In this document: positions 654 to 14,658 of the stretch, in pieces
How positions within the stretch are numbered: position 1 is the first letter of the stretch
Layout: each line of letters starts with the position of its first letter
Origin: Candidatus Pacearchaeota archaeon
Lineage (GTDB): Archaea; Nanobdellota; Nanobdellia; Pacearchaeales; GW2011-AR1
Assembly: GCA_018303895.1 (NCBI GenBank)
Contig: JAGVXJ010000068.1
Span: 1-25,492, forward strand
Length of the DNA stretch: 25,492 bases
Direction of reading: 5' to 3'
Program-made: the position numbers and the translations under genes
Notes under the pieces: model-generated
What the model saw: the letters and a program-made list of their open reading frames with translations, nothing else
What the model was told of the DNA's origin: nothing
Database searches by the model: none

Positions 654-697
654 ATTAAGCAAATCCTCCAAAAAAAGAAAGAAATTTTTTCATTTCT

Positions 698-773
698 TTC
701 ATTAATGCTCGTCCAGACTCTCACAAGCTCGGTCCCAACTTTGTAAGCAAAGATTGGCGCAGTGACTTCGCAT
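698..773 (+). repeat. Dispersed mini-element copy A (left arm 698-713, 44-nt hairpin insert 714-757, right arm 758-773)
   Basis: Arms ttcattaatgctcgtc and cgcagtgacttcgcat match 9279-9294 and 9297-9312 at 30 of 32 positions. The insert folds as ccaa-ctttg-taag-caaag-a-ttgg. Confidence 0.85.
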
Positions 774-775
774 GA

Positions 776-847
776 AGCGGGAGGCGAGAATCGAACTCGC
801 GTCTTGGGATCCACAATCCCACATTCTACCACTGAACTACAACCGCC
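776..847 (-). tRNA. tRNA-His (GTG) with encoded G-1; two acceptor-stem mismatches; no encoded CCA
   Basis: Minus strand reads G-GCGGTTG TA GTTC AGTGGTA GAAT G TGGGA TT GTG GA TCCCA AGAC GCGAG TTCGATT CTCGC CTCCCGC T. D, anticodon and T arms are canonical. Confidence 0.9.
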
Positions 848-3555: not shown

Positions 3556-3600
3556 GAAATTACCATGCCAACTTGTTTATATATTTTTCCAAAAATAGAA

Positions 3601-3636
3601 TTGTACTTTTCTTCTAATAATTTTCTGACCCTCTAT
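3601..3636 (-). repeat. Second copy of the last 12 codons of eIF5A (33 of 36 nt identical to 3678-3713)
   Basis: The copy reads ata gag ggt cag aaa att att aga aga aaa gta caa; the gene reads ata gag gga caa aaa att att aga aga aaa gta taa. Confidence 0.95.
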
Positions 3637-3669
3637 GCGAAGCGACTACGTTCGGCGAGCATTTCTGGA
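3635..3669 (-). repeat. Dispersed mini-element copy C
   Basis: Minus strand tccagaaatgctcgcc-gaa-cgtagtcgcttcgcat aligns with copies A and B. It contains GCGAAGC on the + strand at 3637-3643. Confidence 0.8.
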
Positions 3670-3677
3670 ACAAAAAA

Positions 3678-4070
3678 TTATACTTTTCTTCTAATAATTT
3701 TTTGTCCCTCTATATCCCAATATTCACAATTTTCGCCTTCAACTAATTGGGCGAACAATTCTTCATCAGGGCAAGGAATATCCATTGTTTCAAAATTTTC
3801 TAAATCCATAACACTCGCAACTTTATCTCCTTTTGAAAGAACTTGTGCTTTTCTTTTATCCACCATTGGAACTTCGAACTTATCATGTCCCGGGCTAACA
3901 AAAACTTTCTTGTTTCCTGCAATTAAAGGCATTGCTTCAATTCTACATTTTGCGTGTCCGTGCTTTCCTGTCTTTGAAACATCCATACTTCTTACAACGC
4001 AAGGAACTCCATCAACCATAATGTTGACGCCAGCTTTCGCCTCTGTTGCCTCTATAATTTTTAATACCAT
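3678..4070 (-). CDS. eif5a: Translation factor aIF5A/eIF5A (130 aa; start corrected to ATG 4070)
   Basis: Hypusine motif SKTGKHGHAK and C-terminal OB-fold text QVLS...VMDLENFET. The longer track ORF overlaps the promoter region and the divergent gene. Confidence 0.95.
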   Translation of the reverse strand: MVLKIIEATEAKAGVNIMVDGVPCVVRSMDVSKTGKHGHAKCRIEAMPLIAGNKKVFVSPGHDKFEVPMVDKRKAQVLSKGDKVASVMDLENFETMDIPCPDEELFAQLVEGENCEYWDIEGQKIIRRKV

Positions 4071-8532: not shown

Positions 8533-9285
8533 ATGATAATAAAATTACTTGTTGAGGGTGGAGAAATGAAACCAGGACCAACTCTTAGTCAGAAGCTTGG
8601 ACCAGCTGGAATAAATATGAATCAGGTTCTTCAAAAAATTAATGAATCGACTGCTGATTTCAAGGGACTTAAAGTTCCGGTAGAATTAGATGTTGACGTC
8701 GGAACAAAGATTTTTGAAGTTAAAGTTTTTTCACCACCAGTTTCAGAACTTTTGAAAAGAGAGCTTAAAATTGAAAAAGGATCCGGAACTCAAAAAAAAC
8801 AGTTTGCAGCAAATGCTTCAATTGAACAAATAATTTCTGTAGCTAAAACTAAATTTTCAAACATGCTTTGTAAGGATTTAAAATCTGCAGTTAAAACCGT
8901 CGTTGGAACTTGTGTTTCACTTGGAGTTTTAATTGAAAATAAATCACCTGTTGAAATAGAACATGAAATTGATGAAGGAAAATTTAACAAGGAAATCAAA
9001 GAAGAAAAAACAAAAACTTCTGAAGAAAAAAAGAAACAACTTGAAGAATATTTCTCTGATGTAAAGTCGCAACAAGATAAACTTCTCAAACAGATAAACT
9101 TCTCAAACAAGAACAAGCTGCTAAAGAAGCTGCTGCCGCTGCTGCACAAGCAACTGCCACGACTACGGCTGCTACTCCTGCTGCAACTTCTGCGACGGCA
9201 ACTACGCCAAATGCTCCTGCAAAAACAGCAGAAGCAAAAGCGCCCGCAAAAAAAGAAGCTAAGAAAAAGTAAAACTTTTTCATAA
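8533..9285 (+). CDS. rpl11: Ribosomal protein uL11 with a C-terminal extension; tail frameshifted by a 17-bp duplication (alternative-frame stop TAA 9270-9272)
   Basis: KLLVEGG...PGPTLSQKLGP, VPVELDVD, PPVSELLK and VVGTCVSLG. Confidence 0.93.
   Translation: MIIKLLVEGGEMKPGPTLSQKLGPAGINMNQVLQKINESTADFKGLKVPVELDVDVGTKIFEVKVFSPPVSELLKRELKIEKGSGTQKKQFAANASIEQIISVAKTKFSNMLCKDLKSAVKTVVGTCVSLGVLIENKSPVEIEHEIDEGKFNKEIKEEKTKTSEEKKKQLEEYFSDVKSQQDKLLKQINFSNKNKLLKKLLPLLHKQLPRLRLLLLLQLLRRQLRQMLLQKQQKQKRPQKKKLRKSKTFS
9075..9108 (+). repeat. Perfect 17-bp tandem duplication (agataaacttctcaaac x2) inside rpl11
   Basis: Seen directly at 9075-9091 and 9092-9108. Confidence 0.95.
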
Positions 9286-9312
9286 ATGCTCGTCGACGCA
9301 GTCACTTCGCAT
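9279..9312 (+). repeat. Dispersed mini-element copy B
   Basis: ttcataaatgctcgtc-ga-cgcagtcacttcgcat; 30 of 32 arm positions identical to copy A. Confidence 0.85.
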
Positions 9313-9370
9313 AAAGAAGAAATAAACTGCTTTTTGTGTTGTTTTTGAATGTTAATCAATCAGCAAATAA

Positions 9371-9402: not shown

Positions 9403-9476
9403 GGGGATATGGGGTAGCCTGGTTAGCCTATGAGGTTTGGGACCTTATGACCCCGGTTCAAATCCGGGTATCCCCA
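9403..9476 (+). tRNA. tRNA-Pro (TGG), intron-less, no encoded CCA
   Basis: GGGGATA...TGAGG TT TGG GA CCTTA...CCCGG TTCAAAT CCGGG TATCCCC A; perfect 7-bp acceptor stem. Confidence 0.95.
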
Positions 9477-9592
9477 TTAGTAGTTGAATGAAATGAAACT
9501 ACTTCGGATTTGAAATTCAAATCCCGAGCGATTTCGCGAATAAGAAAAACGAATTGATTTAAACTGAGCGAGGTCGCGAGTTAGGTATCCCC
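9477..9592. mobile_element. Palindrome-rich ~110-bp element ending in a 9-bp copy of the tRNA-Pro 3' end (att-like)
   Basis: ggtatcccc occurs at 9467-9475 and 9584-9592. Stems at 9479-9503 and 9506-9524. Internal repeat gagcgaNNtcgcga at 9526-9539 and 9566-9579. Confidence 0.5.
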
Positions 9593-9673
9593 CAAATTTT
9601 ATCGCTCAATCAAAAATAGAATAATTTAAAAACCATTTTTGTAATCTATTATTATATTATCTAGAAACTAACC

Positions 9674-13762: not shown

Positions 13763-13765
13763 TTT

Positions 13766-13816
13766 TTATCTCTCCCCATAAAAAATTCTTTCGTAAATTC
13801 TCGTCCATAATTTTTT
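13766..13816 (-). repeat. Second copy of the last 17 codons of the PAP2 gene (47 of 51 nt identical to 14038-14088)
   Basis: The copy encodes KKLWTRIYERIFYGER*; the gene encodes KKLWTRIYERIFYGEK*. Confidence 0.95.
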
Positions 13817-13818
13817 GT

Positions 13819-14037
13819 TCTTCATGGAAAGTTAATCGTTAACTTTCTATAGCGTAGCGAGAAAAATTATTTAGATTTTTCTTCATGGAAAGTTAATCGT
13901 TAACTTTCTATAGCGTAGCGAGAAAAATTATTTAGATTTTTCTTCATGGAAAGTTACTTGTTAACTTTCTATATGTTTTGTTCACAAAATATTTCTGAAC
14001 GAATCTTATTCGTTCTATAGCGTAGCGAGAAAAAAAA
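13819..14037. repeat. 61-bp tandem repeat array (starts 13819, 13880, 13941) plus a variant fourth module; hairpin + TATAGCGTAGCGAG units
   Basis: Stem gaaagttaa-tcg-ttaactttc. Tail ttctatagcgtagcgagaaaaa at 13845, 13906 and 14013. Variant stem gaacgaat-ctt-attcgttc at 13997-14015. Confidence 0.95.
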
Positions 14038-14658
14038 TTATTTTTCTCCATAGAAAATTCTTTCGTAAATTCTCGTCCATAATTTTTTTTCTTTTTCCCC
14101 ATACATAACAAATTCTCCAATCAAGTATCCGATTATTGCGCCGAATATTACATCACTTAAGAAATGAACTCCAAAGTATACTCGTGAAAAAGCAATCAGA
14201 CATGCAAAAACAATCCAGACATATTTGAATCTTGGAAATTCTTTACTCAAAATTGGAATTGAACAAAATGCAAGCATTGCTTGAAATGAAGGGAAAGAAT
14301 AATTCCAAATAATAAAATTTTCTTTTATCAATAAAGGTAAAGTTTCAACTATTTCTTGTTGAAATGGCCTTAATCTTTGAACCCCAACCTTTAATAAAAA
14401 ACTTACCATCACTGCGAGCAGAGAAGATACCCACAACGGCAAAACCCATTTTCTTTTGTGTTCTCGCCACATAAACAAGCTCGTTAAAATTAATAAAATA
14501 ATTACTTCTGAACTTACAAAAGTAACTCCCAAAAAAACTTCATCCAGAATATCTCCCCTCAAAAAAGAAACTTTCTCGACGATTTGTGCATCAAAATACA
14601 AACTTATCAGCCCAACTATCACTGCAATTAAAAGAATAATTATTCCTTTTTTTTTCAT
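14038..14658 (-). CDS. PAP2-family membrane phosphatase with a degenerate C2 motif
   Basis: C1 KVGVQRLRP, C2 SFPSFQ (normally PSGH), C3 SRVYFGVHFLSD; several TM helices. Confidence 0.85.
   Translation of the reverse strand: MKKKGIIILLIAVIVGLISLYFDAQIVEKVSFLRGDILDEVFLGVTFVSSEVIILLILTSLFMWREHKRKWVLPLWVSSLLAVMVSFLLKVGVQRLRPFQQEIVETLPLLIKENFIIWNYSFPSFQAMLAFCSIPILSKEFPRFKYVWIVFACLIAFSRVYFGVHFLSDVIFGAIIGYLIGEFVMYGEKEKKLWTRIYERIFYGEK

Follow-up and report, generated by a model that had tools for sequence, protein, structure and literature searches.

A family of tiny non-coding hairpins with the marks of a mobile element at gene ends of a Pacearchaeota genome

Three copies of a short hairpin sequence, here denoted R1, lie in the window, the contig of 25,492 nucleotides from a Candidatus Pacearchaeota archaeon that was analysed as a whole. 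We think it probable, at about 0.6, that R1 represents a family of tiny non-coding hairpin mobile elements that have an exact ATGC end, insert at a CTTY target and are flanked by a long target duplication of variable length. The initial annotation had proposed a REP/REPIN- or MITE-like mobile element; the mobility and the likeness to REPs and MITEs held, whereas membership of the REP/REPIN-RAYT group did not. Mobility is supported by the patchy occurrence of R1, by its absence from the loci that match all three window copies in a syntenic genome, by empty and filled sites behind the gene for S28e, and by target duplications that flank the element.

Read in the strand beginning ATGCGAAG, the R1 cores of the window are located at 705-773 on the minus strand (copy A), 9286-9312 on the minus strand (copy B) and 3635-3662 on the plus strand (copy C). 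A search with the 16-nt arm pattern, allowing at most one mismatch, matched these three places exactly, with no match expected from 100 shuffles. Copy A is a long form of 69 nt whose arms (758-773 and 705-714) enclose an apical insert, and four near-identical long forms are present elsewhere in the same genome (contigs C2, C44, C47 and C81). Copies C and B are short forms of 28 nt and 27 nt, respectively. Each core is followed by a tail, at 695-704 (minus strand) for copy A, 3663-3675 (plus strand) for copy C and 9276-9285 (minus strand) for copy B; the tail of copy A is of the YYATGAAAG type that follows many cores. The three copies had been placed correctly in the initial annotation, with ranges that each take in about 7 nt of the 3' tail, and the arms of A and B differ at two positions, as claimed there. 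The variable middle that it described exists and forms a hairpin of its own in copy A; it is the apical loop of the R1 hairpin, measuring ~43 nt in A, 3 nt in B and 4 nt in C rather than the 44, 2 and 3 nt first given.

Copy A adjoins the gene for tRNA-His (774-847, minus strand), whose 3' trailer ends in CTTC and constitutes the target flank abutting the element; copy C adjoins aIF5A and copy B uL11, both identified by Pfam. The position of all three copies behind translation genes, which had been remarked upon earlier, was verified, but the link to translation looks coincidental because other R1 copies follow many unrelated genes. The cttcgc|AT end on the plus strand, described as common to the three copies, corresponds to a fixed junction, and the duplication abuts ATGC within 0-1 nt. 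The acceptor stem of this tRNA-His carries U5.C68 and U6.U67 mismatches and U73. Its orthologue in a genome of the same genus, G001, also has U6.U67, but A5-U68 and C73, indicating that one mismatch is ancestral and not caused by copy A, while the other two changes are specific to the genome of the window. The uL11 gene contains a 17-nt tandem duplication (GATAAACTTCTCAAACA, twice, at 9075-9108) that shifts the frame, and the Ala/Lys-rich tail, which is conserved in G001, is read thereafter in another frame and ends with TAA at 9270-9272. An intact uL11 allele exists, since a contig in public run X5 is shorter by exactly 17 nt at position 9075.

The R1 core is an imperfect palindrome with the layout ATGC-GAAG-stem-loop-stem-RCGA-GCAT and occurs in forms of 27, 41 and 69 nt. 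An outer stem (ATGC/GCAT) is followed by a symmetric GAAG/RCGA internal loop, an inner stem of 3-5 bp and an apical loop of 3 nt in the common 27-nt form, ~15 nt in the 41-nt form and ~43 nt in the 69-nt form of copy A; most copies end in a short tail. Across 13 copies 93% of the stem cells are paired, none of 500 shuffles reached the observed pairing or covariation score, and the pairing was lost when the partner columns were slid. Covariation of the arms, which had been suggested as a check, was found in both stems, with compensatory double changes from UA to CG in the outer stem and from GC to AU or CG in the inner one. Among 20 distinct cores, positions 5-6 (GA), 21 and 23 (C and A) of the internal loop are invariant and positions 7-8 and 22 nearly so. 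The terminus is ATGC in all cores, or ACGC or ATTC accompanied by a compensating change. G.U pairs favour the GAAG strand by 15 to 7 (p 0.07), a suggestive bias. Individual copies fold with energies no better than those of shuffled sequence, hence the case for the structure is made by covariation only.

Several other structural readings were considered. Locus-specific pairing of the 5' flank with the tail was marginal (permutation p 0.06), and we do not claim such an additional outer helix. The Rfam scan of the window gave no match at the R1 elements. A kink-turn needs a 3-nt bulge and tandem G.A pairs beside a non-canonical stem, and a bulge-helix-bulge motif consists of two 3-nt bulges around a 4-bp helix. 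Both were rejected, as the covariation register yields a symmetric 4x4 GAAG/RCGA loop, neither strand gives the required order when read by hand, and Rfam returned no match. Hammerhead and dif-like readings did not fit either. A CRISPR array was dismissed on the grounds that tandem R1 units are separated by identical sequence each time rather than by unique spacers and that the genome of the window has no Cas1.

A covariance model built from the R1 copies was run on genomes. In the genome of the window, denoted G000 (0.79 Mb in 82 contigs, 71% complete), it identified 24 copies, all of them intergenic, with ~88% of this genome lying under ORFs. An exact-pattern scan of metagenome contigs revealed 87 cores on 71 contigs. 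The expectations that further copies should exist and that they should prefer gene 3' ends were both borne out, by the 24 copies of G000 and ~87 more in metagenome contigs, and by a strong bias of R1 towards gene ends. R1 was detected in 8 of 151 sampled genomes of the same taxonomic family, each carrier belonging to a different genus, and the seven carriers other than G000 have 1-8 copies each (5-8 in G005, depending on the search). None was found in 16 genomes from other families of the order or in the same-genus genome G001, and the core pattern had no match among viral contigs. Identical 27-mers are shared between different genera. In every contig with several cores all of them lie on one strand, forming direct rather than inverted clusters. 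We found no description of such elements in DPANN, Nanoarchaeota or Woesearchaeota in the searchable literature.

The window is represented in public runs from groundwater and soil metagenomes, with no RNA run among those listed. In the contigs of four groundwater and soil runs copies A and C were unchanged with no empty allele, nothing bridged copy B cleanly, and no presence/absence polymorphism of R1 was seen within the source population. Several R1 copies sit at contig ends. Two contigs of G000, C47 (2000-2300) and C56 (1-210), are identical over ~210 nt of flank and spacer (L009, L010), whereas 3 and 6 differences separate their two R1 cores, suggestive of an exchange of core types. Beyond a 24-nt target common to both, C47 carries a long-form R1 copy and C56 none, and the contigs then diverge.

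The comparison with G001, which is syntenic with the window, showed no R1 at the loci matching copies A, B and C. Behind uL11, ~98 nt including the core are absent from G001 and the end of the gene joins the tRNA-Pro promoter directly; behind aIF5A there is no R1, and neither is there one behind tRNA-His, whose gene in G001 was located by synteny, a DNA search for tRNA-His in four relatives having given no match. The R1 core was also found at none of 80 aIF5A loci from other genomes. Among 79 aIF5A 3' ends of other genomes, two (L051 and L092) carry a duplicated gene tail behind unrelated inserts of 42 and 54 nt, and the insert at one S28e site (L197) is similar to these.

Sites in both states are seen in metagenome contigs behind the gene for S28e. 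In two lineages the site is empty, with the stop codon followed immediately by the next start codon, and in four lineages it is filled with R1, one of them having three cores. One further lineage carries a related palindrome with the same ATGC end and the same GAC-TGC-GTC apex as R1, and another a third type of insert. The duplication at filled sites begins at the same AAAGG and spans the last codons up to or through the stop; it includes a G-rich run that may be the ribosome-binding site of the next gene. Between lineages the core at this site differs by only 1-2 nt whereas the flanking coding DNA has diverged by ~15%, as estimated by eye, and a core kept so well is not expected of a purely selfish relic. 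In three lineages (L170, L186 and L190) the orphan S28e tail beside the core is identical over ~18 nt, and the tail copy attached to the gene follows each host's own sequence. Recombination may have spread the shared orphan tails laterally, or they may have been kept alike by selection acting on the ribosome-binding site of the gene that follows.

In about a third of R1 copies the sequence just 5' of the ATGC end reappears shortly 3' of the element, over 13-55 nt. Counting repeats that abut the core and score at least 12, we obtained 18 of 48 R1 copies as compared with 0.8% of 3000 random intergenic control positions (p ~1e-25), and 24 of 80 metagenome copies; about half of the copies have no detectable duplication. 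The duplications measure 38 nt (contig C1), 36 nt (copy C), 24 nt (C43), 23 nt (C47) and 22 nt (C19) in G000, ~24-30, 18-33, 49 and 55 nt in its relatives and 15-35 nt in metagenome contigs, and the lengths observed overall include 13, 15, 22, 23, 24, 26, 30, 36, 38, 49 and 55 nt. One perfect case has a 49-nt repeat three times around two inserts. Two metagenome cases with repeats of 26 nt and 22 nt have only 1-2 nt past the core, demonstrating that the bare 27-nt core can be the whole insert. The youngest repeats are perfect, as expected if they were made at insertion and not brought in as a tail. The repeats that flank R1 behave as long, variable target-site duplications, and in many cases they exceed R1 itself in length. 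The initial annotation had not linked this long duplication to R1.

At copy C the left target copy (3599-3634, plus strand) holds the last 12 codons of aIF5A as an orphan; it is 36 nt long with 3 mismatches, ends 0 nt before the core, and its stop codon is now CAA. The right target copy (3676-3711, plus strand) serves aIF5A as its functional end, and the stop codon occupies 3678-3680 of the minus strand. The duplicated stretch begins 12 codons ahead of the stop and finishes 2 nt beyond it, and the differences are mostly synonymous. At copy B the present end of uL11 (K K K stop and 3 nt; 9261-9275, plus strand) is the weak repeat partner of 9314-9327 (plus strand), probably an older uL11 end (AAG AAG AAA TAA AC), which abuts the core and resembles the single gene end of G001. 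The two are alike at ~11 of 14 positions with one indel, placing this repeat below the scoring threshold. No target duplication was found at copy A.

A pyrimidine run of at least 4 nt precedes 36 of 48 cores, as against 10.8% of the control positions. The usual last four bases before the core are CTTT or CTTC, CTTT alone accounting for 37 of 80 metagenome copies, and this target word is complementary to R1's own GAAG, which lies 4 bases inside the element. On the sense strand of the gene the word reads AAAG or GAAG, matching lysine-rich ends, and this accounts for the orientation bias, the GAAG sequence being on the antisense strand of its neighbouring genes in ~10 of 12 co-directional contexts. 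Copy A is an exception in orientation because its pyrimidine run is the trailer of tRNA-His. At the three G000 sites read by hand (C1, copy C and copy B) the stop codon is followed by an oligo-T run before the hairpin begins.

The R1 family is modular and mosaic, as indicated by stand-alone occurrences of an internal module and by tails made of accessory hairpins. The cargo module of copy A (715-757, minus strand), an inner hairpin followed by a conserved 3' stretch, is also found without R1 arms at two other loci of G000 (C19:6172-6214 and C37:5081-5123), where the inner stem covaries and Rfam gave no match. The insert of copy A is nearly identical in the four other long-form copies, which together form a sub-family of five; the composite has spread as such, and the cargo is therefore not captured anew each time. 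Capture of internal cargo, as put forward in the initial annotation, thus agrees with the stand-alone module, and repeated capture does not agree with the sub-family. The tails and neighbours of R1 are often other small hairpins, the tails range from 1 to 70 nt, and some are common to sub-families at unrelated loci. The 222-nt insert behind a PAP2-like gene of the window consists of accessory hairpin modules.

Related arrangements were seen outside the R1 cores. At C19:6140-6260 and C37:5050-5170 (L146, L147) a conserved multi-hairpin unit of ~85 nt, present twice and lacking an Rfam match, encloses the cargo module. In the window at 13764-14090 three 61-nt modules in tandem, in each of which a GGAAAGTTAA..TTAACTTTC hairpin precedes AGCGTAGCGAG, are enclosed by a gene-tail repeat of ~52 nt; this region has no R1 core, and its accessory motifs also serve as R1 tails on contigs C73, C62 and C81. 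A multi-hairpin insert of ~117 nt behind tRNA-Pro (9467-9608) terminates in 9-10 nt that repeat the 3' end of the tRNA (GGTATCCCC) and is not an R1 core.

We searched for an enzyme that could mobilise R1. None of the profiled families (Y1_Tnp, RVT_1, the TnpB zinc ribbon, DDE_Tnp_1, tyrosine integrase and Cas1) tracks R1. The Y1 HUH transposase is present in 4 of 8 R1 carriers and 44 of 143 other genomes (p 0.22; the genomes are incomplete), and reverse transcriptase in 6 of 8 carriers and 50 of 143 others (p 0.03, although relatedness makes these genomes non-independent). G000 has a Y1 HUH TnpA gene at the end of contig C15, where the upstream hairpin is unrelated to R1, and no R1 core lies near the four Y1 TnpA genes of G000, G005 and G020. 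DDE_Tnp_1 (IS4-type) is absent from G000, G005 and G159, and Cas1 from G000; a tyrosine recombinase is present in G000, as in most archaea. The multi-copy proteins of G000 are housekeeping paralogues with no transposase-like ORF among them, and the recurrent neighbours of R1 in the 71 metagenome contigs are ribosomal and other housekeeping genes only. Since G000 is only 71% complete, a partner gene may be unassembled. A diversity-generating retroelement was also considered and rejected: G000 has reverse transcriptases of that type, but the R1 repeats do not show the expected adenine-specific differences. One such retroelement occupies C29:9288-10900 (L043), in which an RT-16 RNA motif precedes the reverse transcriptase and the template and variable repeats differ at adenine positions; two more, broken reverse transcriptase copies lie on C20 and C34.

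R1 resembles REPs, MITEs and organelle G+C clusters and fails the defining features of each. In PMC3733652 and PMC3116915, the REP/REPIN and BIME mosaics of enterobacteria are described as short, extragenic, imperfect palindromes with many copies, often behind stop codons, with compensating stem changes and mosaic arrangements. R1 is likewise a many-copy, intergenic, imperfect palindrome with covarying stems that is found in mosaics with small motifs, but it lacks the GTAG/CGTC tag, clusters in direct rather than inverted order, has no flanked RAYT that we found, makes long target duplications, and is nanoarchaeotal and patchy rather than vertically stable. With IS200/IS605 elements and PATEs it shares a hairpin with unpaired conserved bases and strand-specific insertion 3' of a word that pairs inside the element; the oriented insertion 3' of a tetra- or pentanucleotide by which PATEs are recognised is seen in R1, with CTTT or CTTC in most copies. 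Neither of those groups duplicates its target, and the two ends of such an element differ, whereas R1 is a single hairpin that makes duplications of 13-55 nt and does not co-occur with TnpA. MITEs, like R1, are small, non-coding and multi-copy, with direct target repeats. The two 12-nt arms of R1 could stand for the terminal inverted repeats of a MITE, but a tail of 1-70 nt separates the core from the right duplication. MITE duplications are short and fixed (2-10 bp), in contrast to the long, variable ones of R1, and one end of the R1 element is itself variable. A MITE also shares its ends with a parent IS, and we found no R1 parent in G000 or the 71 metagenome contigs.

To our knowledge, the IS1634/IS1549 group of the IS4 family is the only one among prokaryotic transposons with direct repeats of long and variable length, tens to hundreds of bp, a property in which R1 is alike. 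These elements are 1.5-2 kb long and encode a DDE transposase; R1 is tiny and non-coding, and DDE_Tnp_1 was absent from the three genomes named above. The G+C clusters of yeast mitochondria (GC42) change in patterns set by structure, merge and shuffle units, and possibly spread between lineages by recombination (PMC4478555). R1 is like them in these respects, and both are non-coding hairpins of 27-42 nt, but G+C clusters are flanked by repeats of 2-3 nt (AG or ACT), whereas R1 duplicates 13-55 nt at a CTTY target. At WHO elements in the 3' end of yeast FBA1, according to PMC7282813, the gene retains a functional 3' end and its former tail persists downstream. A working gene end with an orphan tail downstream is common to R1, WHO elements and fungal mitochondrial mobile ORFs; the latter two code for proteins, use one target gene and bring a foreign tail, in contrast to the 27-nt R1 with its many targets and initially identical repeats.

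The copies show that R1, in our favoured reading a mobile hairpin, enters in one orientation directly 3' of a pyrimidine run complementary to its own GAAG, and that many insertions leave a direct duplication of 13-55 or more bases. Given the purine-rich sense strand of gene ends, with lysine codons and TAA, the preferred site would be antisense and within the last codons, and only insertions whose duplication passes both the stop codon and any start signal of the next gene that overlaps it would leave both genes intact. Survival of such stop-spanning duplications would explain the position of copies just 3' of stop codons and the orphan gene tail beyond them. As the most probable route we favour a trans-acting enzyme that would nick single-stranded or folded DNA at CTTY|ATGC, after which an uncoupled break of the second strand and fill-in would generate the duplication. 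We know of no transposition chemistry that gives so long and variable a duplication around so small an insert. We judge R1 to be selfish or neutral rather than a host device, although the resident copies are unusually well conserved.

The same layout might arise with no enzyme, if a nascent strand at the pyrimidine run of a gene end jumped to a like run beside R1, copied the hairpin and a variable stretch, and returned upstream at an A-rich patch, re-copying the target. Such template switching would account for duplications of 13-55 nt or more with a fuzzy, often A-rich far boundary, for tails of 1-70 nt, some of which recur within sub-families at unrelated loci in the manner of donor flank taken along, for the common mosaic and nested combinations of hairpin modules and for the lack of a linked transposase, and the likeness of gene ends offers microhomology on both sides. 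We nevertheless consider it unlikely, because the |ATGC junction is exact in nearly all copies, the clean cases with 1-2 nt have no evident microhomology at the return jump, and identical cores across genera together with the constancy of the internal loop point to a specific recognition factor. Less likely still is mobilisation of R1, as a genuine REP or IS200/IS605-type element, by a Y1 HUH transposase (TnpA/RAYT), with the GAAG of R1 guiding cleavage at CTTC or CTTT. In IS608 the target word is recognised by a complementary word inside the element, and the R1 layout matches: a hairpin with mismatched conserved bases, in one orientation, 3' of a tetranucleotide that pairs with a word 4 nt inside. 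The TnpA gene on C15 and the G.U bias towards the GAAG strand also agree with this reading. It is opposed by the target duplication of R1, which IS200/IS605 elements and REPs do not leave, by the occurrence of Y1_Tnp, which does not follow that of R1, by the distance of all cores from the four TnpA genes and the different hairpin upstream of the one in G000, and by the lack of a GTAG/CGTC tag and of inverted REPIN pairs.

We consider it improbable that R1 mainly serves the host, acting at gene boundaries as a structured RNA or as DNA recognised by a protein (a 3' stabiliser, a terminator aid or a boundary element), and that its spread is secondary. The stems covary around a conserved internal loop, the copies lie at gene ends, and the core at the S28e site is kept across diverged lineages better than its flanks, as such a role would predict; on the other hand, 143 of 151 related genomes lack R1, as do orthologous loci, the purine-loop strand of R1 is antisense to the flanking genes in most co-directional cases, and R1 matches neither an Rfam family nor a K-turn or bulge-helix-bulge. 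Moreover, an oligo-T run can end a transcript in archaea, and the runs before the hairpins at C1, C and B could end the mRNA first. It is very improbable that the layout is the scar of integrative or homing elements of the WHO or integrase type that brought a replacement gene end, rather than a target duplication. The doubled gene tail with mostly synonymous differences at aIF5A has this appearance, as does the S28e tail, identical on the core side in three lineages and host-like where attached to the gene. Yet the same 27-nt core is found at dozens of unrelated targets, each with a locus-specific repeat, many repeats are perfect and non-coding, one of them including a promoter region, and the inserts encode no protein, some being the bare core plus 1-2 nt. 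The mobile hairpin with its own target duplication remains the reading we prefer. A broader proposal, which we make tentatively and regard as doubtful, is that R1 and similar hairpin inserts share an undescribed insertion route, driven by an enzyme or by replication, in which a duplication at least as long as the element is set off at a word pairing with the element's loop; the long duplication would let mobile DNA settle harmlessly in the overlapping gene ends of ultra-compact genomes.

A mechanism of this kind would lie outside known transposon chemistry, and the exact CTTY|ATGC junction together with the complementary, conserved GAAG offers a concrete substrate for biochemistry. R1 repeats break assemblies and should be masked in the annotation of these genomes. 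R1 would also explain their orphan gene tails, which might be misread as small ORFs, as recoding or as scars of integration. Selfish DNA is generally assumed to find almost no space in the small genomes of DPANN archaea. R1 is tiny, and in many cases its arrival doubles the gene end together with the stop codon and the start signals of the next gene, so that nothing is broken, and R1 would show one way in which mobile DNA can persist in compact DPANN genomes.
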